Shown here piece by piece: positions 23,070 to 63,331 of a stretch of 64,000 nt of DNA. The notes beneath the pieces were generated by a model that had not been told where the DNA came from, did no database searches, and was given only the letters and a program-made list of their open reading frames with translations. This DNA is from an uncultured archaeon (GTDB taxonomy: Archaea; Thermoproteota; Nitrososphaeria; Nitrososphaerales; Gagatemarchaeaceae): the NCBI GenBank assembly GCA_963799775.1, contig CAWCYD010000003.1:1792001-1856000 (forward strand). The letters are read 5' to 3'. Position 1 is the stretch's first letter. Every line of letters begins with the position of its first letter. Made by a program: the position numbers and the translations under genes.

Positions 23070-23146
23070 GCCGCGATAGCTCAGCCTGGTAGAGCGTTAC
23101 CTTGGTAAGGTAAAGGTCGCGTGTTCAATTCCCGCTCGCGGCTCCA
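23070..23146 (+). tRNA. tRNA-Thr(GGT), no intron, CCA encoded
   Basis: GCCGCGA/TCGCGGC acceptor, TTACC-TTGGTAA-GGTAA anticodon arm; one T-stem mismatch (GCGTG/CCCGC). Confidence 0.9.
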
Positions 23147-23152
23147 ATCCTA

Positions 23153-24136
23153 TCAAGACGCCATCGAAGATTTTCGGATTTTTCTCTTGATTGTTTGAAT
23201 CTTGACGTAGACGTCGAAATCCTCGAGAACCCTGTTTCGAATCTCAGGAGCGGGTAACCCTTTCGCAATCAAGGCTTGTACCACTTCTTCAAGCCAATCG
23301 GGCCAAGTCGGCCCTTGAAACGTTCTCGCGCCCACCATTTTCTCCAACAACTTTCTTCGGTAGGTAAGGACAGCCGGACTGAAGATTTGAATTTTCGCGG
23401 CCGTCGGTGCATCTACGGCTACATAGCCGTAGCCACGGGAGAACCTGATTACGCTCTTGACGCCCAAGGACACGAAAATTCTATGAAAGAAATGCGTATT
23501 CGGAGAGCTTGTTATCTCGATTAACTTGTTCCTCAGATTCACACTCCCATCCGAATCTGCGATTCCCCTCAAGAACCAGAGGCGGAACACTACTGGCGCG
23601 TCAAGCAACCAGTCCATCTTCACTGGATGCAACGTCGTCCTCTCATCCCAGTTCATGCCAAGAGCTGCCACATGTAGCCAACCTACAACAGGAGAGAAGG
23701 TAGACTTCCAAAAGAAGGACCCGTTAGGATTGCTTTTCAAAACAGGTCTGTCTTTGTAGCGCTTGAACCATATACCAATCATCCTAACGCACTCTGCTAC
23801 GTGCTCTCCGAGGTCCAGATTTTCGGGATGCTTCTTGGTGAGTTGCATAGCAATCCTCGCGGAGAGTCTTCGCTCATTCCCGTAGTCCTTGCCAAAATCA
23901 CCCACGCACCAACCCAGCAAGTAATACATTGAGGCAAGGAATCGATCACGGTCGACAACCGCGACTCCAGTGAGGCACTCGACTACCTTTAGCATTACGG
24001 AATCGAATTGCTTATGCGAGGCGGCACGCCCGGGAACAATTACCGACTTTGTGCGCTTCCGGTCGAGGTATAGACGGAAAAACTCGATTTCAGCGGACGA
24101 TTCCGCCGTAGGCTCTTCTTGAACAGAAACGAGCAC
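23153..24136 (-). CDS. Free-standing double-motif LAGLIDADG endonuclease-like protein
   Basis: YLLGWCVGDFG and WFLRGIADSDGSV motifs; no intein splicing motifs or host gene; lower GC. Confidence 0.75.
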   Translation of the reverse strand: MLVSVQEEPTAESSAEIEFFRLYLDRKRTKSVIVPGRAASHKQFDSVMLKVVECLTGVAVVDRDRFLASMYYLLGWCVGDFGKDYGNERRLSARIAMQLTKKHPENLDLGEHVAECVRMIGIWFKRYKDRPVLKSNPNGSFFWKSTFSPVVGWLHVAALGMNWDERTTLHPVKMDWLLDAPVVFRLWFLRGIADSDGSVNLRNKLIEITSSPNTHFFHRIFVSLGVKSVIRFSRGYGYVAVDAPTAAKIQIFSPAVLTYRRKLLEKMVGARTFQGPTWPDWLEEVVQALIAKGLPAPEIRNRVLEDFDVYVKIQTIKRKIRKSSMAS

Positions 24137-30230: not shown

Positions 30231-30393
30231 GGGGTCGTCGGCTAGGCCAATCCGAATCACTTCGGCTTGGGGCTAGTCTGGTCTAGGCTTCAATCACAAA
30301 TCGGAAGATGCCTCGGGAAGAGAGCAGATTTGCAGTGCGAATCTGTCTCGAGAACGCTTGAGACCCCCGGTTCAAATCCGGGCGACCCCACCA
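30231..30393 (+). tRNA. tRNA-Pro(CGG) with three introns (15/16, 29/30, 37/38), CCA encoded
   Basis: Removing 30246-30276, 30294-30309 and 30318-30354 gives GGGGTCG/CGACCCC acceptor and CAAGC-CTCGGGC-GCTTG anticodon arm; central BHB helices GGCT/GGCT, CTTC/GAAG, CTCG/CGAG. Confidence 0.88.
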
Positions 30394-31587: not shown

Positions 31588-32013
31588 GTGTCCAAGACAA
31601 TCGCATCAAAGGACGACCTAGCCTCGCGATTCGCCCGCTACTCGAAGGACCAGGCCCAGTTCGCGAAGGCCGTAGACGCCGTGTTCGGAGGCTCGGTGAA
31701 GAAGCACGTCTTCACGCCGAGCGGCAGGGCCATCTTCTCTGTGGTCGGGAGCAACGCCGACGAGTTCATCGACCCTGACAAGTCGTTCTGCTCGTGCGAG
31801 TCCTACTTCTACAGCGTCCTGAGCGCCAAGACCAGGCAATGCTATCATCTCCTCGCCTACAAAATCGCCTCCGAGTCGGGCCTGATTCACGAGGTCGAGT
31901 TCGACGACGAAGAGTACGACCTCTTCATGAGGCTCCTCGCGTCAGATGTCCTGCACTCGCGAGAGATAGGGAAGACGCCCAAGAAGAGGCAAGACTTCAC
32001 TTGGGAAAGCTAA
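31588..32013 (+). CDS. SWIM Zn-finger protein
   Basis: FCSCESY...CYHLLA. Confidence 0.8.
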   Translation: MSKTIASKDDLASRFARYSKDQAQFAKAVDAVFGGSVKKHVFTPSGRAIFSVVGSNADEFIDPDKSFCSCESYFYSVLSAKTRQCYHLLAYKIASESGLIHEVEFDDEEYDLFMRLLASDVLHSREIGKTPKKRQDFTWES

Positions 32014-32324
32014 AGCGTCCCTGCAACCCCTCACGCGAAAAGGGAAATCGACCCTTCATGCCGCGTTGGAAAAATTCCATGCAAGACTTATCAACAAAAC
32101 GTGAGAAGATAGCAATAGTGGATTCATGACCAAACTATGAATAAATAGATGCAAAGTCTAGTTGATTGAGTAAGGCCGTGACCTCTGAAACCCCAAAAGG
32201 CGGAATCGCTATGATATTGTCGCCGCAATCCTCATTGTGTTAGCATCCATGACCATAGGTCCGTGACCTTAGTTTCTTCTGATATTATTAGCCCCAAGTT
32301 ACTTCATGTTGGGACGATGTTCGA

Positions 32325-33530
32325 ATGATCCTCTCGAATCAGAATTCGTTCTTCAAGTCAAGGGGTCTCAATATCGGAATTATGATGGTGATTCTCACTC
32401 TTCTGCTGCTTTCTAGAGCATTGCCAGTAGGTGCCGTTGCATCTCCCACTTCTTTCTGCTCTCCTGCTGCGATAAACAGCGCCACCGAGGCCCTTGATGC
32501 TAATATCAACCAAGCAACAATCAAAGAGCATGCCACATCGACAGCTGCTCTGTACTCTTCCGTCTACAACGTCCAATACGAAGGCGTATTCTTCAACACA
32601 ACATGGAATTCTAGTTGTATCGTTTCTATGGATTACGTGGGGGCGGCCTATGCAATGACGGACAAGAACGGTGCTAACTTCGTCCTAGAAATCATCGAGA
32701 GCCCGTCCCTATCGTCTGTTCTTAATGTGACAATCTCTCCCTCAGTCTCGCACAGCATTTACAATGACAGCAGTGGGAACGGGGCCAAGTGGGCCGGATA
32801 CGAATACAATTCGGGAAACGGACTCGAGGAGACTGAAGCGGATTGGTCTGTCCCCGCAATCAGTGGCCCTGGCTACGATGGGTCTGGTACGAACACGTGT
32901 GATAATGGCCAAGACCAAACATACTCGAAATGCATTTACTCTTTCTGGGTTGGCGAGACCGAAGGCCCGGGAGGTTATAACAGCTCTTCAATCACAGGGC
33001 TTGCGCAGGGCGGTACCGATTCTGATTGCAGCAATAGCTGCGATGGCACCAGCAACGGCCCTGACACATACAACATGTGGATTGAATTCGTAAACAGCAC
33101 AAGGGATGACCGGCTACCTGACACCACAGATGTCGTAGGTTCTGGCGATTCCATACAGGCTTACGTAACCGTATTCCCAACCAACGACTACTACGTGAAT
33201 GTCCTTGACGAGCACTCGGGCAAGGCATGGTCTAGTTACATGCCTAACGGCTTCGGCATGGGCAAAGCACATTATGCCCAATTCATGGGCGAAACACCTG
33301 GTGGTTATTCTCTCCCTGACTTTTCAAGCTTCAGCGTTTCGGGAGCCGGATACTACGACGATAGCAGTAACTGGCACACCATCGGAAGCGGGTGGACGAC
33401 CGAGTACGTTCAAAACTATCCATCAGCCTATCAAACATGCAACAGTCAGTCTCACAAGTGGAACGTGTGCTCTGGTTCGGTCTCTAGTGGGGACTTCGGC
33501 CAGAGCTACCTTACAACTTCTGGCTATTGA
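32325..33530 (+). CDS. Secreted glutamic peptidase (G1/eqolisin-like), paralog 2
   Basis: WAGY, ADWSVP, SFWVG, LAQGG (Gln), WIEF, VGSGDSI, FMGETP (Glu), LPDF; colinear with 24447-25643. Confidence 0.72.
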   Translation: MILSNQNSFFKSRGLNIGIMMVILTLLLLSRALPVGAVASPTSFCSPAAINSATEALDANINQATIKEHATSTAALYSSVYNVQYEGVFFNTTWNSSCIVSMDYVGAAYAMTDKNGANFVLEIIESPSLSSVLNVTISPSVSHSIYNDSSGNGAKWAGYEYNSGNGLEETEADWSVPAISGPGYDGSGTNTCDNGQDQTYSKCIYSFWVGETEGPGGYNSSSITGLAQGGTDSDCSNSCDGTSNGPDTYNMWIEFVNSTRDDRLPDTTDVVGSGDSIQAYVTVFPTNDYYVNVLDEHSGKAWSSYMPNGFGMGKAHYAQFMGETPGGYSLPDFSSFSVSGAGYYDDSSNWHTIGSGWTTEYVQNYPSAYQTCNSQSHKWNVCSGSVSSGDFGQSYLTTSGY

Positions 33531-33647
33531 TATGTCAAACAAATCTGCCAAACCTGGATAATCAGAAAGTTGCCGTGATAGAGCAATCCATCTCAATCCT
33601 TTTCTAGACCATCCCCAATAAAATTCTAACACTGAAGCTGGTGGCCT

Positions 33648-34514
33648 TTGAACAGTCGAACCGGAATCGCCCTGCTCGTGATCGGGTGCCTAATTCTTGG
33701 TTCGATTGCAACATATCAACAGATTCTCATCACCAAATCACCAGAGATAGCGAAAACAGTCACGGCTACAATCTCTCAAACTCAGACGACGACAATCACG
33801 TTGTCCACTACCACTTCAGTAAACAACACAGTGATTGTTTCGGCGGCGAATCAAACCATAGCCTCGACCTTGGGGCCGAACGGGATAATGTTACTGACTT
33901 CTATCAATGCCACAACTCTTATTGTCGGGCAACAATTGGAGATTAGCGTTTCGCTCTTCAATTCACTCCCTAGAGTAAACAGCGTACCAACCGCGGCTGA
34001 CTGGCAATTTAGAGGCGTCCCACTTTCCTTGTGGCAGGATTGCGATGTAACTCCTGCCAAACCCAATGGGCAAATGGAAACATATGCTACCGAGGTAGTC
34101 GTGCTGCCGGGATACTATACAATCAGCAACATATCGACGGTCGCCAGTGTCTTACTTCCCACTCAAGCTTGTCATGGCTTATCGAGTATGATAGACCACG
34201 TTATTTTCCAGCCGACCAGCTCAACGGCAAATATTACCGGAATCGGTGGAGTGTCAGCGAGTGGACCGATTAACATGACCGCCGGTCCATTCCACACATC
34301 GAACAGCTTCACTACTCGCGGAAGTTGGGATCTTTCAAGTGCTTTGTCTCAGCTTTTGAACGGAAGTCAGCCAGCTATCATCACTAACAACAAACCCGAG
34401 CAAGCAGCTAATATTCCTCCCACAACGTCATTCTCTCCTGGGATATACACGATAGGAATCTCAGATGAATGGGGGCAGAATATCATTTTTCACTTCGACG
34501 TTTTGTCAGAGTAA
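33648..34514 (+). CDS. Membrane-anchored Thr-rich partner protein, paralog 2
   Basis: TM helix, Thr linker, GPNGIMLL...VSLFN...PGIYTIGISDEWG. Confidence 0.72.
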   Translation: MNSRTGIALLVIGCLILGSIATYQQILITKSPEIAKTVTATISQTQTTTITLSTTTSVNNTVIVSAANQTIASTLGPNGIMLLTSINATTLIVGQQLEISVSLFNSLPRVNSVPTAADWQFRGVPLSLWQDCDVTPAKPNGQMETYATEVVVLPGYYTISNISTVASVLLPTQACHGLSSMIDHVIFQPTSSTANITGIGGVSASGPINMTAGPFHTSNSFTTRGSWDLSSALSQLLNGSQPAIITNNKPEQAANIPPTTSFSPGIYTIGISDEWGQNIIFHFDVLSE

Positions 34515-34691
34515 TACAGACAGAAAGGAGGAAGTACGAGCACTTGTTTAATATTGTGTAAACAGAAGCTTGCTATCCCTGATTGGTTTCATTCGTGTCC
34601 AAAATATCACCATGACCTCTCAATCCCTAGGGGGAAGCTTCAACACGACGAGTTACAATAGGGCACCGAACCCGTAAATTTTGAAGATACG

Positions 34692-34792
34692 AGCCACAGA
34701 AGGGATTTGAACCCTCGACCTTCTGCTTACAAGGCAGTTGAGCCGAGAAGCATTCATTCTCGTATGCTCTAGCCAGGCTGAGCTACTGTGGC
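34692..34792 (-). tRNA. tRNA-Thr(TGT) with a 26-nt intron at 27/28
   Basis: GCCACAG/CTGTGGC acceptor; removing 34763-34738 gives TCTGC-CTTGTAA-GCAGA; BHB central helix GAGC/GCTC and intron hairpin CGAGAA/TTCTCG. Confidence 0.9.
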
Positions 34793-36244
34793 CCGAGCAC
34801 CCCCGCTTCTGATTCGGCTTAATCTCCTTTCCGTCAGTGACCTAGCAAAAAGGGCTCGGCAATCGACCGAAATCGCTTGCTTCGTATTCGGATAAGCAAG
34901 AGCAGCTGCCTTGTGACATCCTCCCGCGTTCTCGGAACGTGGGCTTTCAGCGGTTTGGTTTCCGCCTCTAGTTCCTGCTTCAACGACCGAGCTTGCAGCC
35001 CCAGTTGACCAGGGCCGTAGAGATCCGGTCTCCACAGGCTTGAGTTCGGGCGCGACCCGCCCAGGGTGCTCCTGAACGCGTCGAGGACCGCCACGGTCCT
35101 TGTCCCGCCCTACCTGAAGTATTCCTCTCTTCAGCACGACTCGACTAGCATTTCTGTCGCGGTCTAGAATCTTCTGGCAGCCCTTGCAAGGGAACTCGCG
35201 CACGTCCAACGACACTTCAGTGCGGGTTCCACATGACCAGCACTCTTGGGAGCTGAACGCCGGGGGCACTTTCACAAATATCTTCGCCGCCCGCGCTGCC
35301 TTGTATTCAACGAACTCCATGAGCTGGGCCCACGATGCATCCTTGATTGACTTGGCCAGGCTGTGGTTCCTTACCATGTTCCCGATACGCAAATCCTCGA
35401 AAGCCAGCAGGTCATGGTCTCTGACTAGTCTCGCGCTGAGCTTGTGGTTGAAATTCCGCCTCCTTCCGGATACCCTCGAGTACCGAGTTGCAAGTTCGAG
35501 CCGTGCCTTGTCTCGGTTCTTCGAGCTGGGTCTCTTGTTCGCCAGGCTCTTGTGAAGGCGGGCTAATCGCCTCTCAGATTTCCTAAAGAACCTCTGGGGC
35601 TCAACTCTCTCTCCATCGCTGGTGGTTATCAATGATTTCAGCCCCAAGTCAACACCTAGAGGCGATGTCCACGCTCTGGGGAGGGACACATCACATAATG
35701 GCATCCTGCTTTCGTACACCAGGCAAGCGAACCACTTGCCGTCCGGCTCGCGTTTGACTGTGCAAGTCTTGAGCTTCGCGCCCACCGGAACCGACCTGTG
35801 AATGACGACCTTGACATTGCCAATCTTAGAAAGATGTAGCCGATTCTTTTCGGTCTCGAGTTTGGCTCCGCCATTGTACGCCTGAGGATAGGTGAATGAA
35901 CCCCATCCACTGTGTTTCTTGAGTCCCGGGAACTTACCTTTGCCTCCGAAGAATTTCTTGAACGCCCTATCCACCCTCCTCAGCACGTCCTGGAGCGTCT
36001 GCATGTATAACGACCTCATCTCAGAGTTCTCTCTTACTTCGGTCGTAAGCATGAGACATTGCTGCCAGTAGGTTGTGGAATGTCTCTCTCCCTGCCACCT
36101 CGCCTTCCTGTCTTCAATGGCCATATTCCATAGACGGCGACAAACATCGACCGTCTCAATCATGCTCTTCTCTTGTCTTCTGTTCGGGTAGAGCCTAAAC
36201 TTGAAGACACTCCGAGCATTCAACTGGGAACTAACCCAAACCAA
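34769..36244 (-). CDS. tnpB: IS200/IS605-family TnpB RNA-guided nuclease, no TnpA in window
   Basis: FKFRLYPN, RuvC-I GVDLG, RuvC-II AFEDL, Zn finger CWSCG...CKGC, RuvC-III DRDRNA; ORF reads through the right end into the tRNA. Confidence 0.93.
   Translation of the reverse strand: MVWVSSQLNARSVFKFRLYPNRRQEKSMIETVDVCRRLWNMAIEDRKARWQGERHSTTYWQQCLMLTTEVRENSEMRSLYMQTLQDVLRRVDRAFKKFFGGKGKFPGLKKHSGWGSFTYPQAYNGGAKLETEKNRLHLSKIGNVKVVIHRSVPVGAKLKTCTVKREPDGKWFACLVYESRMPLCDVSLPRAWTSPLGVDLGLKSLITTSDGERVEPQRFFRKSERRLARLHKSLANKRPSSKNRDKARLELATRYSRVSGRRRNFNHKLSARLVRDHDLLAFEDLRIGNMVRNHSLAKSIKDASWAQLMEFVEYKAARAAKIFVKVPPAFSSQECWSCGTRTEVSLDVREFPCKGCQKILDRDRNASRVVLKRGILQVGRDKDRGGPRRVQEHPGRVAPELKPVETGSLRPWSTGAASSVVEAGTRGGNQTAESPRSENAGGCHKAAALAYPNTKQAISVDCRALFARSLTERRLSRIRSGGARATVAQPG
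34899..35115 (-). ncRNA. Predicted TnpB omegaRNA (scaffold plus about 14-nt guide); 5' boundary approximate
   Basis: Right-end hairpin GCCCACGTTCCGAGAACGCGGG followed by AGGATGTCAC (ends 34913); downstream flank AAGGCAGCTGCTCT is the predicted guide. Confidence 0.65.
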
Positions 36245-36247
36245 GCA

Positions 36248-36665
36248 TTAAGCACCCATGGAACGCCGAAGTTCGGCGAGAACTTTCCGAAGTTCCCCGC
36301 CCGACTGGGCAAGGAAATCTGCGTCCTTTAGGATCAGAGACAGAGTCGCAAGCTTATCCCGATTCTCATTGGGTGCCTCGATGAAGGCCCCGCAGACCAA
36401 CTTCGGCAGCGTGGCTTTTAGCAGCCCAAATCTGAGATTCATGTATGCAGCGCGTCGCCGTAGCTCCGAGAGAGCTGTTCCATTCCGCCTGCTGCAAGAA
36501 GTGCACTCGAGCACAATCCCACTTCCAAGAAACACCAGGAAATCCACAGAGATGCCCCTCTACGGGGTCGGAGGCCGAAGCTCGAACACATGGTGAGACG
36601 AAAGACAGCCGTTCCTCAATCAGGAGATTCCTGACCGACTCCTCTTGGAAGGTCAGGGGCATCAT
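36248..36665 (-). pseudogene. Small PD-(D/E)XK-like nuclease, disrupted by a frameshift and a stop
   Basis: Joined frames read QEESVRNLLIEERLSF..HHVFEL....*RGISVDFLVFLGSGIVLECTS; ends 4 nt before the tnpB start. Confidence 0.4.
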
Positions 36666-36877
36666 TGCATGAGTCCTCCTCATCCATGCGATTGACGTGA
36701 CAGTTTACACCTATGCTATACCTCCTAGGGCTATTTAACCACCCATAGAACAAGACATTATTCTGCCTCTGATTGATAAACGGGGCTAGATTCGAGCTTC
36801 TATCATTGGGACAAACAGGATGACATTGCCGCTTAATTGTGGCCTACCACATGGTGTAACGCGCAGGCGGTCTATCG

Positions 36878-37576
36878 ATGAAAGGGCTCATTGTTCTTGC
36901 GGAGGGAACAAGACAAGACTTTCTGACTGTCTTGATTGACCAATCGTCCTTTGGGCTGCAACTCAATCGAGTCCTTTGCGTCTCTGACAAAGAGGAACAA
37001 AACTCGGCGATTGAGAAGCGCTTCGAGGAGTTCGGATACAGGCCAGAATTCCTCTCCTATTCCGACTTGCGGAAAACCAATGCAATGACCGCGAGAGGCA
37101 AGTCAGTCCTCCTCATCTCACCAGCAGAGGCAATCAACGAGTCTGATGCAAGGGGCATGATCGATGGCGGACTGGTCAAACTGCTCACCAGCAAGATTTG
37201 GAGGAATGTTCTCGCGTTCCATGAGACAGACGCTCCTCTTGGCATCACCCAGGTCAGGGCCCTTGACCACCTGTCTGAGTGGATCTCCAGAGGAATCAAT
37301 GAACGGCCGAAAGCTTGGTTCTACGAAATCTTGCTAACGCTGTTGTATAGGAGGCACGAGAGTGTCAGAGGCCTTCAGCGACTACTTGCAAAATCAGTCT
37401 GGAGCCAGCTCGTCCGTACTGATACAGCATCCGCAATCAGACAAGCGCGCGCAGAATTTCTGCGAGAGAATCTCATCTCTGAACGAAAAGGCAGCCTCAC
37501 TTGCAGCGAATCCGGGCGGCGGGCAGTAGAAGATTACACCCCGTTTGACAAGATTGAGTGTCCCGGACACCCGTAA
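36878..37576 (+). CDS. Hypothetical protein with C-terminal Hel308/Ski2-like winged-helix domain
   Basis: EILLTLL...AEFLRENLISERKGSLTCSESGRRAVEDY resembles the Hel308 WH motif (L...g.I.......T..G...s..Y); no Walker motifs. Confidence 0.5.
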   Translation: MKGLIVLAEGTRQDFLTVLIDQSSFGLQLNRVLCVSDKEEQNSAIEKRFEEFGYRPEFLSYSDLRKTNAMTARGKSVLLISPAEAINESDARGMIDGGLVKLLTSKIWRNVLAFHETDAPLGITQVRALDHLSEWISRGINERPKAWFYEILLTLLYRRHESVRGLQRLLAKSVWSQLVRTDTASAIRQARAEFLRENLISERKGSLTCSESGRRAVEDYTPFDKIECPGHP

Positions 37577-39431
37577 GCCACGTGATATCGATGAGAACGG
37601 TCCACGTCCGGGTTGGGAGCCTGATGACGACTCTCGTGAGCGTTCTGACTATCTCGAGGAACTGGTTTCCGAGAGCATAGAGAGACATGGATGGGTGACT
37701 GTCAACGAGGTCGCCACAGCAGCAGTCGACAGTCGAGTGATGCCGACCCGATCGAATGCAAAGTCGCGGAGGATCCTGAAGAAGCTCGTCGCCAAGGGAA
37801 GGCTCGTGGAGTCTGTCTACAGGACTGGCGTGGGCAGGCCACGTCTGGTCTACAGGAGGCGAAACTCCACAGATGCGGCAGAAATCTTCGATAATTCTTG
37901 CGGTGATTGCGCGCTCTACTCTCCTGTCGTGAGGAGATGCAGGTTGTGGTTGGCACTTTCTAGATTCAATGCTCAGCAAGTCTACGAGAGGCAAGAAGAA
38001 CTATCGGCCATCGCACGAGACAAGCTGCGCAACTCCAACAGAAGGGTAGGGCCTACTGCCACGGCCTGCGAGATATTCACTCCCAAGAAAAAGGATTATC
38101 CCCTGTCACAAGCCCGGGACAAATGTGCATCCTGCGGGCAGGAGATTGATACTCCCGTGGCGAAGACCGTCAAGTGTCCCAAATGCCTGACCACGTACAA
38201 GCCCCTCGCAACGAAGATCCTGGTCCACTACGACTACGAACAGTTGTTCAAGGCGCGTTATACTAAGCTAGCAGGAGTGCCACCCCCAAGGCAGGCTCTC
38301 GTGCTTACGGAGCAGGAAGTTCGCGCAGGAAAGACTGACTGGCGCGACATCATCGTTCTCTACCCTGGCGAGAAAGTTAGGCTGGAGGCAGAGGGCATCC
38401 ATGTGGAGCGAAGAAAAGGACGCTTGGCGTTCGAGCCTTACAATCGCATTTACCAGATCATCGATTATGGGGCGCTTACTGACAGGATGATTTGCTCCCT
38501 GAAGGCCGAAGGACTCTCCGTATTGCAGGGGCGTCTCCAAGAGGGTCCCAAAGGGAGAACGTCGTTCCCACTTTACCCGTCGCTTGGATTCGTCGAGAAG
38601 CTGCGCTGGCTCGAGCAGAATTCTCCCCTCCGCAGAGAACTCCTCAAATCGATGATGCTCAGCACGATAGTCGCCACCAAGAGGATAGCGAGCCGCGGCG
38701 GGCCAGGATTGAAGGTCCTTGTGAACCGGCAACTCCTCGAATTCGCCCGGATGAACACGGATGCCGAAATCTCTGTAAGCAGAGCTCTCGCCTACGAAGC
38801 TCGGGCCAACCGCCTATACTGGAGTGCCTACAAGACGATGCTCAGGGTCTCAGGGCTGGGGTTCGAAAGCAGAGTGAGGGACAGATTCGTCAGGGAGATA
38901 GTGCAGAGCATTAGGGCAAGGGCTAGAGGATATTCTCCCGCGAACGCTGCGATAAACTATCTCCACCAGAGGAGACTGCTCTTGTGTCGTCTCGCTAACG
39001 CGAGGACCGCCATCGGTTGGGTCGGATGCGAGGGAATACTCCACGTCGCGAAGAGGGAGCCAAGCATAGGCCTCTTGCTAGACCTCAGCGACTCTTTCAA
39101 GCTGGCTGATAGGGAGAGCTTCCTGAACGCGACGCTTCACATCGAGGTGACAAGGGACGATTTTGTTGCCCGTCTAGGAAGGCAGAGGACCTGGTTCTAC
39201 TATCCGACCCAGGAGGCAGTCGGCAAACTCGATTTGTATGGCTCACACGCCGACCAGTTTCACGTCGTCTATCGAGGTAAGAACATGACCTTGACTGGAG
39301 CTTATGATGAGCTACTAACCTCATTCATCGAGGCCGTAGAGAATTCTGACCTGACTCGTTTCTACCCATTTGTCTATGGCGGCGAAGAAGACGCAATGTG
39401 GCTCGAGAGTATGGATTCTGAGAGAGAATGA
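37545..39431 (+). CDS. cas1: Solo Cas1-family integrase with N-terminal wHTH and Cys/Zn domains
   Basis: Cas1 beta domain (IIVLYPGEKVRLEAEGIHVE...PYNRIYQII) and catalytic domain YEARANRLYW, FESR, PANAAINY, GILH, LLLDLSDSFK; N-terminal wHTH, CGDC...C, CASC...CPKC. Confidence 0.8.
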   Translation: MTRLSVPDTRKPRDIDENGPRPGWEPDDDSRERSDYLEELVSESIERHGWVTVNEVATAAVDSRVMPTRSNAKSRRILKKLVAKGRLVESVYRTGVGRPRLVYRRRNSTDAAEIFDNSCGDCALYSPVVRRCRLWLALSRFNAQQVYERQEELSAIARDKLRNSNRRVGPTATACEIFTPKKKDYPLSQARDKCASCGQEIDTPVAKTVKCPKCLTTYKPLATKILVHYDYEQLFKARYTKLAGVPPPRQALVLTEQEVRAGKTDWRDIIVLYPGEKVRLEAEGIHVERRKGRLAFEPYNRIYQIIDYGALTDRMICSLKAEGLSVLQGRLQEGPKGRTSFPLYPSLGFVEKLRWLEQNSPLRRELLKSMMLSTIVATKRIASRGGPGLKVLVNRQLLEFARMNTDAEISVSRALAYEARANRLYWSAYKTMLRVSGLGFESRVRDRFVREIVQSIRARARGYSPANAAINYLHQRRLLLCRLANARTAIGWVGCEGILHVAKREPSIGLLLDLSDSFKLADRESFLNATLHIEVTRDDFVARLGRQRTWFYYPTQEAVGKLDLYGSHADQFHVVYRGKNMTLTGAYDELLTSFIEAVENSDLTRFYPFVYGGEEDAMWLESMDSERE

Positions 39432-39930
39432 CAGGCGTTGAAAACTCATTCTGCCAAAATGATATCATCGCGACCAGTGGCGGCACCAGCGAACGCACTT
39501 GCAATTAGTCAGGGCGCGGCTGTTGCTCTCGCCGAGGCCTCTACAATATTCGTACAACATACTGCAAACTCGAAAGTCAGCTTCAGTCCCTATTTCTCCA
39601 AAGTCGTCGGGCTCGGATGCTCGGTCCGTTCACAATCACAGTCGACGCGCAGATAACCTACCAACTCGTGAGCAATACCTGGCTAATGCACCAAGAGGTC
39701 TGGAATTTTGTCAGCTTCCATAGCCAGAACACGGGCGGCTGGCCCACTTTTCCCCCCAATGGCAAATCGTCGGCCCTCCGCTTCCGCAGCACTATTCTGA
39801 GAGCCCATTCAAGAACTGGGTCTACTTCGATGGGGGCGCTGCCGCAGCAACGCTTCTGGCAGGATACCTCGCGACGATCCCCATCTTCGTCTACATCAAG
39901 AAGCGAAAACGCGTTTAGTCGCCAATATGG

Positions 39931-40371
39931 TTACTTTAGTGACTTCAGTGTCTTGAGGGCTTCGTAAGCCGAGGTAACCACCGCCGCGGAAATGACAGCA
40001 AGTGCGAAGACGAACAGCGGGGAAATCGTCGCTGGTCGTAAGAAAATCAACATAACTAAGAGGGATGTGAGGAAGAACGCAATATAGGCTACCTGGGTAG
40101 GAATCGCGAGTCGTTTGAATCGGATTACGTTATCAAACACAACCCTGTCGATGATGTAACCTTCTTGCACCTCCTTAACCAGTCCGAGTTGGAGCAATTT
40201 CTTTACATGATACTGAGCAACCGAAATCGAACTCAAACCTAGGTCTCGTTGGATTTCCCCAGTCCGGATAGGCTCGCCCGCCTTGAATATGTAGCGATAT
40301 ACTCTAAGAGTCGTTCCCTTTAATGATTCGCGAGAATCCTCTGACTGAGACTCGAACTCCGTCATACTCAC
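39931..40371 (-). CDS. HTH regulator with two C-terminal TM helices
   Basis: LKGTTLRVYRYI...EIQRDLGLSSISVAQYHVKKLLQLGLV plus two TM helices. Confidence 0.8.
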   Translation of the reverse strand: MSMTEFESQSEDSRESLKGTTLRVYRYIFKAGEPIRTGEIQRDLGLSSISVAQYHVKKLLQLGLVKEVQEGYIIDRVVFDNVIRFKRLAIPTQVAYIAFFLTSLLVMLIFLRPATISPLFVFALAVISAAVVTSAYEALKTLKSLK

Positions 40372-40480
40372 GCAATTATCATTTGTCTTATATGCCTAAA
40401 CATTAGGTATGAGTTCGATTTACAACCTAAACAATAGGTAGATGCACTGGCCTTCGTCATACCACAACGGCGAGGACCAA

Positions 40481-41089
40481 ATGTCAGAATTTAGAAAGGA
40501 AATCGCGATAGGTGTCACGGTTGCGGTCGTAGTTGCCACAGCATTGGCCATTGCTTCAATCTCATCATTTTCTGGCCCATTAGGAGCCGCTTCCAGTAAT
40601 CCGAGTCAAACGTTGGTCGAGTCGCAGACTACGACATACATTTCACAATCACAATCATCCGTAACCATTTTCTCTAGTCAATCACTTTCCGGACCGCAAT
40701 ATCACCTGACATTCCAAGTTCTGGGAACATGCAATTCGAGCACAATATACTTGCCATGGGGCGTGACCATCTGGAATTCAACGATGAATAATCAGACCGA
40801 AAGCGTCCCAACAGGCACGCCTCTCGCAGAACTAGAGCAAGTTTCGGGGCTTCCGCCAGCGGCGGTCAATGGTTCAACGCAATCCACTACTACAATCACT
40901 GCGAGTTTCACCGGAAGCTCAGTAAGCAAACCGACCACCTTGCAAGACATGATAAACTTCACGCTCCCCGTAGGCACCTACTATTATCAGACGTATGGTC
41001 TGTCGATGGCGGAACACGGGACTGTGATTGTGAATGGAACATCGCAAGTCATTCAAATCCAACCACTCATACCGTGTTATAGCAAGTGA
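40481..41089 (+). CDS. Membrane-anchored Ser/Thr-rich protein
   Basis: N-terminal TM; LTF...PWGVT...INFTLPVGTYYY...GTVIVNG resembles thermopsin C-terminal-type repeats. Confidence 0.65.
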   Translation: MSEFRKEIAIGVTVAVVVATALAIASISSFSGPLGAASSNPSQTLVESQTTTYISQSQSSVTIFSSQSLSGPQYHLTFQVLGTCNSSTIYLPWGVTIWNSTMNNQTESVPTGTPLAELEQVSGLPPAAVNGSTQSTTTITASFTGSSVSKPTTLQDMINFTLPVGTYYYQTYGLSMAEHGTVIVNGTSQVIQIQPLIPCYSK

Positions 41090-41218
41090 TATTTTCAGGC
41101 TGCTTTGGCTTACTATGTAATTGAATTCTGTCTTCTAGACCTGTAATTTTTCCTTATAGTTGAAGCATGAACCGAAGTCCGCATAGAAATATATCATTAC
41201 AAACGCAAAAAGCTGCTG

Positions 41219-42430
41219 TTGCATCGCCCCATCGCAGCATCAATTCTTCTCGCTCTTTTCCTAACATTGCCATTAGGATTTGTGGCATCTGCTTCGACGG
41301 GGTCTTGGAACGGCCTGCCTACTTGGGCAAGGCTGCCTACGGTTCCACCTCCGATTGATGGTAAGCCGACTTGCTGGATTTTGAGTAACGGAGCATGGGT
41401 GGTTAATCCAGACGATTGCGTTCCCGTACCGCAAAATCTTATCCCCACTGAGGGAGGATTGCACCATCCCATTTACGGAGTCGACGATAATTTCATCGAA
41501 AGAGCCGCAACCTCAGTAGATGTGTCTCAATATAGCGGAGAATATGACAACCGTACAAATACGGCCGGAACCTACAGTGTTCAACTCAACACAAATATCT
41601 TTGTTGGCAATCTTTATGGGAGCAATGGGGATGAAGACTGGGACCAATTTGTTTTTCAAAATCAGCCCAATGTCCTCACTGACGAGTGTATAGTTCAGTG
41701 GGACTTATCGCAAAGCACATCACAACCTTTAGCTTATCCTGATAGCTACTGTCAGACGATTTCCCAGCAACTTCCGCTTGAAACTGCCTTCCAGGTGGTC
41801 GTGCAGGGATCTGCTACTAGTGGTTATCTTAGTGTCACTGTTTCTGCGCCGAGCTATACCCCGACTGCACTCTCGTTGACCGATGTTCTCGGTTTGGAGT
41901 ACGACAATTGGGGAACCACTTCAGGTACCATACTTGGCGCCGGGCTTTCGTCAACGGCTGATTTCTATTCTCCAGCCACGGTGTACACCGATGTTGGCAC
42001 TTATTCGAGCAACGAATACTATTCGCAACAGTCCGATACCAACACCGGTGAGATGAACAACCTGTATTACACATCTACGGGCCCTGCTGGTTGTGACACC
42101 AATTACGTCTGCTGGGAAGACACAGTGTCAAGCACTAGTTCGGGTGGTGGTTCGTTAAACCTGAATGTGAACTCGGTAAACTATAACACACAGTCTCCGA
42201 TTACTGGGTACTACACGCAACTTGACGATTCCAGCTATAATGAGCTTAGTTATGGTTATACGCCGACCACATACAGCGTGACCTACGGGAGTAACTATCT
42301 TGTTTATGCTGATGGCTATGGAAACTGCAACTTCTACCAGTGGTCTGATGGAAGCACATCGATGCCCCATCCTGTCACCCCGTATGGGGATACTACTCTC
42401 ACTGCGGAGTACACTGGCAGCAGTTGCTGA
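41219..42430 (+). CDS. Secreted protein, possibly protease-like, with C-terminal beta repeat domain
   Basis: Signal peptide; YSVQLNTN...WDQFVFQN; C-terminal YGNCNFYQWSDG...LTAEY. Confidence 0.65.
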   Translation: MHRPIAASILLALFLTLPLGFVASASTGSWNGLPTWARLPTVPPPIDGKPTCWILSNGAWVVNPDDCVPVPQNLIPTEGGLHHPIYGVDDNFIERAATSVDVSQYSGEYDNRTNTAGTYSVQLNTNIFVGNLYGSNGDEDWDQFVFQNQPNVLTDECIVQWDLSQSTSQPLAYPDSYCQTISQQLPLETAFQVVVQGSATSGYLSVTVSAPSYTPTALSLTDVLGLEYDNWGTTSGTILGAGLSSTADFYSPATVYTDVGTYSSNEYYSQQSDTNTGEMNNLYYTSTGPAGCDTNYVCWEDTVSSTSSGGGSLNLNVNSVNYNTQSPITGYYTQLDDSSYNELSYGYTPTTYSVTYGSNYLVYADGYGNCNFYQWSDGSTSMPHPVTPYGDTTLTAEYTGSSC

Positions 42431-42601
42431 GTATCCTCGCGGCTCCGCCCAAGACTCACTGGTAGGGTCAAGAAGAGACGGACTGTCTCCTCGGACTCTA
42501 TTCTCGAGGCTCAGAATCGGCTTGCAAATCGCACTATCCACAGATTCCCTGTTGGCCCAAAGATAATATCAATCCAATCTCGCAAGGTCCTCGTCACCGC
42601 C

Positions 42602-63185: not shown

Positions 63186-63331
63186 TGGTGCGAGAGGTGG
63201 GATTCGAACCCACGAACGCCTAAACGAGCGGATTTCTCCTTGCGTCGCCGTAGGCCCTGGAGCGACATCTGATCTTGAGTATCGGCGCCGAATCGGCCCC
63301 GCCGCCGTTGACCAGGCTTAGCTACTCTCGC
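63186..63331 (-). tRNA. tRNA-Leu(CAA) with two introns (30/31, 37/38), CCA encoded
   Basis: Removing 63298-63281 and 63273-63234 gives GCGGA-CTCAAGA-TCCGC; BHB helices CGGC/GCCG and CTCA/GGAG. Confidence 0.9.

Follow-up and report, generated by a model that had tools for sequence, protein, structure and literature searches.

A stranded tnpB with a guide matching the intron-less tRNA-Thr(UGU) junction, next to a CRISPR-less Cas1 module in the soil Nitrososphaerota

Here we present a computational analysis of positions 34692-39431 of a 64,000-nt stretch of archaeal DNA (the window), a locus designated W and carried by the Nitrososphaerota genome assembly G000, which is 81.7% complete. The locus brings together an intron-bearing tRNA-Thr(UGU) gene, a tnpB gene with its omegaRNA, a small gene of PD-(D/E)XK-type fold designated c2, and a gene for a Cas1 fusion protein. 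The reading that we favour, with confidence slightly on the better side of even, is that W is a mosaic of two units that meet at tRNA-Thr(UGU): a c2-Cas1 module, and a stranded tnpB-omegaRNA unit whose guide appears to be directed at uninterrupted tRNA-Thr(UGU). The start of the guide matches the exon junction of this tRNA as it reads with the intron taken out, and the guide has been kept in two relatives while the sequence beside it decayed.

A preliminary description of the same DNA had viewed the block as a candidate composite system of four genes, in which Cas1 would place short DNA (introns) or the element at tRNA genes while uninterrupted alleles are eliminated by TnpB, which could help to account for the density of tRNA introns; independent accretion at a tRNA hotspot was held equally possible. 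The two halves of that proposal are treated separately below, beginning with TnpB.

The guide matches a spliced tRNA junction

The features that carry the main finding all lie on the minus strand, as follows (window coordinates).

34692..34792, minus strand: tRNA-Thr(UGU) gene, intron-bearing (RF00005, 45.4 bits; anticodon loop CTTGTAA)
~34792-34767, minus strand: exon 1 of tRNA-Thr(UGU)
~34766-34741, minus strand: non-canonical intron of 26 nt, placed between tRNA positions 26/27 to within +-1 nt
~34740-34692, minus strand: exon 2 of tRNA-Thr(UGU)
34793..34891, minus strand: spacer between guide and tRNA, with ~55 nt poorly conserved and then ~45 nt of conserved tRNA upstream region (alignment of W and L072)
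34892..34912, minus strand: guide segment of the omegaRNA, 21 nt, its first 14 nt being the antisense of the spliced tRNA-Thr(UGU) junction
34913..35070, minus strand: omegaRNA scaffold, ending in GGATGTCAC; it overlaps the tnpB 3' end and is shared, in conserved form, by 5 G000 copies of tnpB
34769..36244, minus strand: tnpB open reading frame (ORF), 491 aa as listed (NF040570, 275 bits against a cut-off of 100)

The end of the scaffold was placed by comparison of the five G000 tnpB copies, which are conserved up to GGATGTCAC, at 34913 in W, and then continue into copy-specific sequence. In W this copy-specific part, the guide, starts with AAGGCAGCTGCTCT. A RAGATH-18-like match at 34972-35038 scored 27.5 bits, below the gathering score of 44.9. 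The block had been said to abut the intron-bearing tRNA; the tRNA is indeed present at 34692-34792(-), and tnpB is not physically in contact with it, as the scaffold ends at 34913, the guide occupies ~34912-34892 and the tRNA starts at 34792.

Read on the antisense strand, tRNA-Thr(UGU) presents TTAC in the anticodon loop, then AAGGCAG (positions 34-28) and then, with the intron removed, one base followed by TGCTCT (positions 26-21). Guide bases 1-14 agree with this antisense exon 1-exon 2 junction at 14/14 positions in the related locus L072 and in G323, a genome of the same genus, and at 13/14 in W, and TTAC directly precedes the guide-matching stretch. TTAC is known as a transposon-associated motif (TAM) of IS200/IS605 elements and is the presumed TAM for the TnpB of W. 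The recognition sequence spans the intron site, with guide bases 1-7/8 corresponding to exon 2 and bases 8/9-14 to exon 1, both in antisense. Because the intron splits the target after guide base 7-8, the match is too short in the intact gene. The RF00005 alignment of the gene contains an insertion of 42 nt, against 13 in the model, and minimum free energy folds of the tRNA form an intron hairpin together with pairing to the D-stem strand; the splice sites are inferred from sequence. A tRNA-Thr(UGU) with the same intron site is present in L072 and G323.

Shuffled guides seldom produced a match of this quality. In a restricted test with 200,000 shuffled guides on the spliced allele, none (0/200,000) reached 13 matches and the best reached 12, and under the loosest scheme, in which a match could lie on either of the two strands and span any one deletion of 8-60 nt, 1/400 shuffles did as well. 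The other G000 copies with the exact scaffold, among the matches listed (4/6), reached 0-10 on any of 32 tRNAs. Furthermore, alleles with the corresponding uninterrupted sequence exist: TTAC+AAGGCAG-N-TGCTCT occurs once each in 40/97 genomes of the family, with 0 for the reversed control. The base N is G in 30 of these, C in 5 and T in 5, and five have the exact base for guide position 8. The uninterrupted motif is found in 15/22 congeners and is absent from G000, where exon 1 and the anticodon arm of tRNA-Thr(UGU) are single-copy. Thus the earlier suggestion that this TnpB is aimed at uninterrupted tRNA alleles gains in silico support from the identity of guide bases 1-14 with the spliced junction next to TTAC. 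In a limited literature search, no published TnpB guide with a match to a tRNA exon junction was found.

Conservation of the guide provides a second line of evidence. Between W and L072, identity is ~90% in the scaffold and 21/21 in the guide and drops to ~45% over the following ~55 nt, which contain an indel; the tRNA upstream region and the tRNA are conserved again. Between W and G323 the guide is 19/21 identical, including the first 15 bases. That the guide was kept while the adjoining ~55 nt decayed, at the synonymous distances given below, shows it to be under constraint. Within G000 the guide is unique, all other matches being chance-level 14-16-mers, and scaffold plus guide occur in 2/97 family genomes, namely G000 and G323. 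No match with <=4 mismatches, other than W and L072, was found in the loci then collected, and the guide 20-mer had 0 exact matches in viral contigs, an exact-match search being a weak one; a virus or plasmid target is not indicated by these comparisons. The view that the guide is unrelated to the tRNA, as it lies 100 nt away, was also entertained and was dropped because the guide is conserved in both L072 and G323 and agrees with the spliced junction.

An old, immobilised tnpB

The identification of tnpB was upheld by the NF040570 score and by Pfam domains OrfB_IS605, Cas12f1-like_TNB and HTH_OrfB (PF01385, PF07282, PF12323), all above their cut-offs. Its paralogues are 422-438 aa long, and translation probably begins at a TTG that lies ~21 nt into the 491-aa ORF as listed. 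At the other end the ORF runs ~50 codons beyond the ends of the paralogues, through the guide and into the tRNA (34769-34930), for want of a stop codon; long tnpB ORFs, of 474 and 476 aa, are also seen in L072 and G323. The motifs GVDLG, FEDL, CxxC...CxxC and RDRNAS are kept in the TnpB proteins of W, L072 and G323, and GVDLG, FEDL and RDRNAS presumably supply the D-E-D triad of RuvC; CxxC...CxxC is the zinc-finger motif. Comparisons among W, L072 and G323 gave ratios of non-synonymous to synonymous divergence (dN/dS) of 0.10, 0.11 and 0.16 at dS 1.6, 1.2 and 0.54, indicating purifying selection.

We assembled 91 Cas1 loci (the window, 2 more copies in G000, 16 loci from species-representative genomes and 72 metagenome loci), and tblastn detected tnpB in 4/91: W, L027, L050 and L072. 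The copies in L027 and L050 are unrelated (38-41% identity) and lie kilobases off or beyond Cas1. L072 shares the order tRNA-tnpB-c2 collinearly with W, with 72% aa identity in tnpB, and its c2 stop likewise lies 3 nt from the start of tnpB. The congener G323 has a tRNA-tnpB-c2 block that is 77% identical and is ended by the contig end inside c2. The expectation that the four genes are co-conserved as one system did not hold, given the presence of tnpB near Cas1 in just these 4/91 loci.

A complete, mobile IS200/IS605 element would have a left end (LE), a right end (RE) and TnpA, and the tnpB of W does not have this set. The ~100 nt of LE seen in four full paralogues of G000 is replaced in W by c2 coding sequence, and a search of the G000 assembly for Y1 TnpA (PF01797) found none. 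Because the 81.7%-complete assembly has 19 tnpB-like matches and no Y1 TnpA match, all tnpB copies found in this genome appear to be non-autonomous. The tnpB of W itself is old, immobilised and fixed behind c2, and is not a general member of the module.

A possible homing cassette

The following mechanism is proposed for the tnpB-omegaRNA unit. The guide RNA would read the antisense strand of intron-less tRNA-Thr(UGU), from tRNA position 34 to 21, with TTAC as the presumed TAM. The 26-nt intron of the resident tRNA, lying inside the target, would leave this allele unrecognised and immune. TnpB could then cut uninterrupted tRNA-Thr(UGU) alleles entering or arising in the cell, and the break would be repaired from the linked intron-bearing copy. 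A cassette of tnpB, omegaRNA and intron-bearing tRNA might thereby be kept and spread, like a free-standing homing endonuclease together with an intron that splits its site. If true, this would be a natural RNA-guided nuclease serving as a free-standing homing enzyme, its immunity mark being a short archaeal tRNA intron. The long-standing idea that tRNA introns persist by breaking the recognition sites of selfish elements could then be put to a direct test using one guide, one TAM and two alleles. A way of retaining an immobilised tnpB for the sake of its guide, distinct from that of the TldR-type repressors, would be revealed as well.

Several observations weigh against this proposal. Guide base 8 of W mismatches its own junction, and 35/40 of the wild uninterrupted alleles mismatch the same base. 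The match to the tRNA covers 14 of the ~21 guide bases and no more. TTAC is a presumed TAM, and at their left boundary the tnpB paralogues have a TTAT-like motif. G323, a bin that is 59% complete, contains both the guide and, on another contig, a perfectly matching uninterrupted target with TTAC, the two contigs being C3 (127-144) and C126; this could be tolerated self-targeting, a mixed-strain bin or a sign that no cleavage takes place. Finally, the genome G332 has an intron at the same tRNA site without tnpB, in whose slot it carries a LAGLIDADG-like gene, and the intron there is therefore independent of tnpB. In G332 the orthologous tRNA-Thr(UGU) (L127 8461-8580) is 120 nt long and apparently has two introns, one at the 26/27 site and the other in the anticodon loop, the latter breaking TTAC.

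In IS200/IS605 elements, the guide corresponds to the right-end flank of the insertion. By this logic the match to the tRNA could be historical, and the main alternative to the homing proposal, which we regard as rather unlikely, builds on that point. An intron-less copy of tRNA-Thr(UGU), lying antisense to c2, would have received an IS200/IS605 element behind the TTAC of its anticodon loop, later deletions would have taken away the left end together with the bulk of the disrupted tRNA, and the guide would be the surviving flank; TnpB would cut nothing relevant today and the present intron would be unrelated. Consistent with such a history, tRNA-Thr(UGU) lies antisense to c2 in L063 and L025, the left end of the W element is truncated, and the sequence that ends just ahead of tnpB, TGCTTAA in W and GCTTAA in G323, is similar to the TGCTTAC to be expected. 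The intron of G332 and the tolerated target of G323 also fit. However, the left-side resemblance amounts to 5-6 bases only and falls within c2 coding sequence, and a neutral flank should be scrambled at dS 1.2-1.6, yet 19-21 of 21 guide bases are retained against ~45% in the adjacent ~55 nt. In addition, purifying selection on tnpB (dN/dS 0.10-0.16) and retention of its motifs are not what would be expected of an element unable to transpose.

The c2-Cas1 module

The remainder of W consists of the features below.

36248..36683, minus strand: c2, the ~145-aa PD-(D/E)XK-fold partner of Cas1, with a frameshift near 36594-36601
36684..36877, no strand: intergenic region from which c2 and the Cas1 fusion gene diverge, containing the mosaic breakpoint at ~36731-36747
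36878..39431, plus strand: single Cas1-fusion gene, split into ORFs of 232 aa and 628 aa by a frameshift near 37555-37565

Comparison with homologues changed the gene count of the preliminary description, in which two pairs made up four genes; there are really three genes in two units. Its shared divergent intergenic region stands, with bounds of 36684-36877 instead of ~36690-36877. The listed plus-strand ORFs, one of 232 aa at 36878..37576(+) and an overlapping 628-aa Cas1-domain ORF at 37545..39431(+), had been taken as separate genes for a winged-helix (WH) protein and for Cas1. They belong to one gene of ~860 aa: the near-full-length homologues among the 39 found have 776-870 aa in a single protein and span 93-99% of the 628-aa ORF, and the 232-aa ORF aligns to residues 16-241 of P0002 at 67% identity (151/226).

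The sequence of W changes affinity within the intergenic region. Positions 34691-36747 match L072 4408-6471 collinearly at 72.4%, and positions 36731-39393 match G332 at 72.6% nucleotide identity. The W Cas1 belongs to subfamily A and is G332-like, whereas the L072 Cas1 belongs to a different subfamily; W is therefore a mosaic, with its breakpoint at ~36731-36747. Cas1 and TnpB are neighbours here, and no evidence for a functional tie between them was found.

The Cas1 domain scored 29.7 bits with PF01867 against a cut-off of 22.3. The order of domains in the fusion is a Hel308-like RecA2+WH remnant, a winged helix-turn-helix (wHTH), two Cys4 clusters (zinc ribbons) and the Cas1 domain. In the AlphaFold model of a full-length relative (predicted local distance difference test score, pLDDT, 81), the C-terminal ~370 aa adopt the Cas1 fold, and the best Foldseek matches of this part were A. 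fulgidus Cas1 4n06 (E 1.6e-11), RT-Cas1 (reverse transcriptase-Cas1) and the casposase 6opm (2.5e-9), the top range being 1.6e-11 to 1e-8. E650, H732 and D745 (P0002 numbering), along with eight Cys, are invariant in 24 sequences. By their position in the Cas1 domain, not by superposition, these three residues are presumed to equate with the catalytic E141/H208/D221. The Hel308-like character claimed for the WH protein stood in part: the N-terminal 250 aa show a weak likeness to the second RecA-like domain and winged helix of Hel308 at template modelling (TM) scores of 0.37-0.44, under the bar of the tool, and this N-terminus gave no Pfam helicase match and did not qualify as Hel308/Ski2-like by RecA or helicase motifs.

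The small nuclease-like gene was likewise in need of partial revision. Its stop lies 3 nt before the listed tnpB start and its PD-(D/E)XK-type fold holds, while the listed 99-aa and 105-aa ORFs are halves of one ~145-aa gene, c2. The c2 model (pLDDT 90.8) has a restriction-endonuclease-like fold, and its matches comprised the restriction-like endonuclease (RLE) domain of R2, Cdn1/Card1, AF1548, MUS81, XisH, Bax1 and EndoMS (best E 2.7e-4, TM up to 0.57). Residues Q25, E26, D57, E69 and E112 are invariant. In terms of the motif E...D...(D/E)xK, E26, D57 and E69 are thus invariant, and the position of the canonical Lys is T/W (ECT/ECW). No match to c2 was found in Pfam, NCBIfam or PADLOC, and its profile found nothing significant among Protein Data Bank (PDB) sequences.

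The pairing of this gene with Cas1 was amply borne out. Using as informative those loci that hold the Cas1 N-terminus and >=500 bp upstream of it (n=49), we found c2 within 2 kb in 48/49, the sole exception being L032. In most loci c2 is divergent from Cas1; in one clade, L050-L058, the two are co-directional. A c2 profile search of G000 hit exactly three places, each adjoining a Cas1 paralogue.

Besides the window copy, the paralogous loci of G000 are at C3:1731878-1733718 (L016) and C3:1761978-1763666 (L017), all within ~100 kb. Up to three copies within ~100 kb are also found in G332 and in the genome of L021/L028/L034, where the three-copy layout spans 79-83 kb. Across lineages the module is patchy: it occurs in 2/301 genomes of a class-wide sample and in 20/97 family genomes, which include 3/26 of high quality, 10/22 congeners and 3/55 of the largest genus. 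Decay is also frequent: internal stop codons are common among the copies, and the L016 copy is spread over >=3 frames and has a stop codon. Counting against our reading of the module, the second G000 paralogue is in pieces, and both genes of the module carry a frameshift in the W assembly, which may be real or an assembly error; the tnpB of W is intact.

Searches for partners of canonical Cas1 were negative. No CRISPR array came to light when the window was run through Tandem Repeats Finder and G000 was scanned crudely by k-mers, and PF09827 found no Cas2 in G000. The PF01867 search of G000 matches the window copy alone, and therefore no canonical Cas1 was found. A PADLOC scan returned nothing besides Cas1. 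No terminal inverted repeat (TIR) of >=12 nt was seen within 400 nt of the module in 29 loci, nor in the window, and no target duplication was seen around c2-Cas1. Among the flanking ORFs scanned, PolB had no match; the genome as a whole was not searched for PolB. Cas1-c2 is thus a CRISPR-less accessory two-gene module, patchy and often decayed, that occupies up to three old chromosomal loci per genome. It presumably acts on DNA as a nuclease/integrase pair.

Three contexts recur. In the first, the module lies beside tRNA-His with c20, an unknown gene of ~400 aa; in the second, it lies beside rpl10e with the two-domain gene c1; in the third, the type of the window, it stands between c17 and c19 beside tRNA-Thr(UGU). 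The c20 product (379-414 aa, no family match) is encoded directly behind c2 in the tRNA-His-linked loci (L021 8151-9290(-), L016 5336-6580(-), L036, L043, L022, L068), and its conserved C-terminal ~140 aa also stands alone in L022. The c1 gene (L027 7117-8358(-), L017 11422-13035(+) and 16 other loci) is found between rpl10e and c2 and encodes an N-terminal helix-turn-helix followed by two repeats with WVAGLxQGEG; by motif reading alone it looks LAGLIDADG-like. Neither c1 nor c20 had a PDB sequence match, and c1 was also without a Pfam match. A 310-aa LAGLIDADG-like gene (PF14528, E 0.021, below the cut-off) is present in the window at 23180-24073(-), beside tRNA-Thr(GGU) at 23070-23146(+). 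Elsewhere it occurs at L127 8794-9726, L025 8219-9115 and L063 8057-8941, where it fills the slot that tnpB has in W, and it lies within 15-214 nt of tRNA-Thr in 4/6 places found by tblastn.

The variety of genes behind c2 invites another reading, which we judge improbable: TnpB would have replaced a LAGLIDADG-like or c20 gene in this slot and been domesticated as an RNA-guided cutter serving c2-Cas1, making three of the four genes one system. The occupant does vary, being the 310-aa gene in L127, L025 and L063, c20 in L016, L021, L036, L043, L022 and L068, and c1 at the rpl10e locus, whereas W, L072 and G323 have tnpB there; the junction of c2 and tnpB, 3 nt long, has been conserved, and TnpB is immobile yet constrained. 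On the other hand, the 310-aa gene is also found beside tRNA-Thr(GGU), 13 kb from any Cas1, and so goes with tRNA-Thr rather than with Cas1. The tRNA-tnpB-c2 arrangement is common to W and L072, whose Cas1 genes are of different subfamilies, and it is Cas1 and c2 of W that are frameshifted, with tnpB intact. A bolder form, which we hold to be quite doubtful, would have a Cas12 ancestor and a Cas1 relative cooperating without CRISPR: an interchangeable cutter behind c2 (LAGLIDADG-like, c20 or TnpB) would break a tRNA allele, c2-Cas1 would process or integrate DNA at the break, the tnpB-omegaRNA with its fixed guide would be the natural RNA-guided arm of this Cas1-based homing or integration system, and tRNA introns at such sites would be footprints or immunity marks.

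To place the fusion protein among its relatives, an exhaustive profile search of 1.84 billion representatives was made, which yielded 166 clusters at E <= 0.001. The named distant relatives among them are Asgard proteins of 843-1600 aa. In P0106 (1356 aa, Asgard) a DEAD and Helicase_C region (superfamily 2 helicase) precedes the wHTH-Zn-Cas1 part, and in P0164 (1599 aa, Asgard) a PDDEXK_1 nuclease does so; P0078, P0097 and P0079 are further relatives of the wHTH-Zn-Cas1 part from Asgard metagenome-assembled genomes. These helicase-Cas1 and nuclease-Cas1 fusions therefore suggest that the N-terminus of the window protein may be a helicase remnant and c2 a split-off nuclease. The distant relatives point to the diverged Cas1 homologues of Asgard archaea reportedly described by Makarova et al. 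2020 (CRISPR J), and the window family may equal an already described Asgard or Cas1-solo group. No report of this Nitrososphaerota Cas1-c2 family was found in a limited literature search. The c2-Cas1 pair extends the little-studied and strongly diverged Asgard Cas1 fusions into soil Nitrososphaerota, with an obligatory nuclease-fold partner and three conserved chromosomal homes, and should be useful for asking what roles Cas1 has outside CRISPR and casposons.

W lies in a stretch of low G+C content (window 32000-42500; 0.45-0.58 against ~0.60 in the flanks) that also holds ORFs without Pfam matches at 32325-33530, 33648-34514, 40442-41089 and 41219-42430. A 288-aa ORF of this stretch has paralogues directly downstream of the third Cas1 copy.

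tRNA introns and the distribution of Cas1

Three tRNAs were found in the window by Rfam and by ARAGORN without intron mode, and the intron mode of ARAGORN added tRNA-Pro at 30231-30393 and tRNA-Ser at 63186-63331. To compare genomes, a tRNA was counted as long when its full-model match was >=90 nt.

G000, this Cas1 present: long tRNA 14/23
G332, three copies of this Cas1: long tRNA 11/22
G326 (same genus, one contig, 95% complete), this Cas1 not found: long tRNA 14/24
G164 (100% complete), this Cas1 not found: long tRNA 10/26

The scheme of the preliminary description in full, in which Cas1 inserts introns or the element into tRNA genes and TnpB removes uninterrupted alleles, is largely refuted by these distributions and is in our view highly unlikely. 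Its TnpB half has the sequence support described above, and ARAGORN found a tRNA within 1.6 kb beyond c2 in 6/26 loci against ~1 expected from tRNA density; these loci form two syntenic groups (tRNA-His and tRNA-Thr) and are not independent events. Cas1 as the source of the introns is another matter. The preliminary description had itself named intron-rich relatives without this Cas1 as evidence against it, and for the Cas1 half such relatives exist: G326 and G164 are as intron-rich as the two Cas1-bearing genomes. The tRNA-Thr(UGU) junction is uninterrupted in 8/10 congeners with this Cas1 and in 7/12 without it. The Cas1 family was found in only 2/301 genomes of the class, yet the one genome of ammonia-oxidising archaea examined (G004) has long tRNA matches too, and neither the intron nor the module was seen to be flanked by repeats or duplications. 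Pure accretion, in which an ordinary insertion sequence came to lie near a tRNA hotspot with a coincidental guide match, would suit the abundance of tnpB in G000 and its rarity near Cas1 and is nevertheless barely credible, given that no shuffle reached 13 on the spliced allele against 14 observed, that arrangement and guide are conserved in three lineages (W, L072, G323), and that the other exact-scaffold copies listed match tRNAs so poorly.

Comparison with known systems

In collaborative homing, as in the phage psbA and nrdB cases, a free-standing homing endonuclease acts together with an intron that has no endonuclease of its own. As in these cases, the nuclease gene of W is beside, not inside, the intron-bearing gene, the site spans the intron, and intron-less alleles exist in 40/97 relatives. 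Unlike them, W has an RNA-guided nuclease, and its tRNA intron is short, spliced by protein and non-canonical in position; for W, cleavage and co-conversion are steps that we infer. Homing by LAGLIDADG enzymes of archaeal bulge-helix-bulge introns is mentioned in PMC13565253.

That source also distinguishes 'restorative' and 'non-restorative' transposon homing by the TnpB/omegaRNA of IS200/IS605 elements (PMC13565253). The TnpB of W is of the same family (NF040570), with a scaffold overlapping the tnpB 3' end and a guide just past the right end, and, as in the homing described there, the guide would recognise the allele that is free of the interruption. The W unit differs from an IS200/IS605 element in that its left end is truncated, no TnpA was found in the assembly, and it has stayed in one place over dS > 1 with the guide kept. 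In the protected allele its target is split by a tRNA intron at a distance of ~150 nt, whose gene has the same orientation, and not by the transposon.

Another fate of tnpB is represented by the TldR proteins, which are TnpB-like nuclease-dead repressors (PMC10705468). Like TldR, the tnpB of W is an immobile derivative with a conserved guide RNA at a fixed locus. Unlike TldR, it keeps GxDLG, FEDL and RDxNAS, so that nuclease death is not indicated, and its target is in a tRNA gene and not in a promoter.

As summarised in PMC4390854, the Randau-Soll hypothesis holds that disrupted tRNA genes protect against mobile elements, and concerns the att sites of integrases. In W, too, an intron interrupts a tRNA sequence that would be recognised by a machine derived from a mobile element. 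The recogniser here, however, would be an omegaRNA guide, and the immune allele is linked to the nuclease, which would make a selfish cassette and not host protection only.

The Cas1 fusion, for its part, can be set against the Cas1-solo proteins and casposases of PMC4046053. It shares with them the Cas1 fold and E-H-D residues in the absence of a CRISPR array, as well as an associated extra nuclease. Unlike the casposons of that account, the module shows no TIR or target duplication and no PolB among the flanking ORFs scanned. It differs from the Cas1-solo proteins and casposases described there in its domain order (Hel308-like remnant, wHTH and two Zn ribbons), in its obligatory partner c2 and in its fixed, syntenic chromosomal loci in Nitrososphaerota, and, unlike Cas1-solo group 1 as presented in that source, it appears to have kept its catalytic residues.

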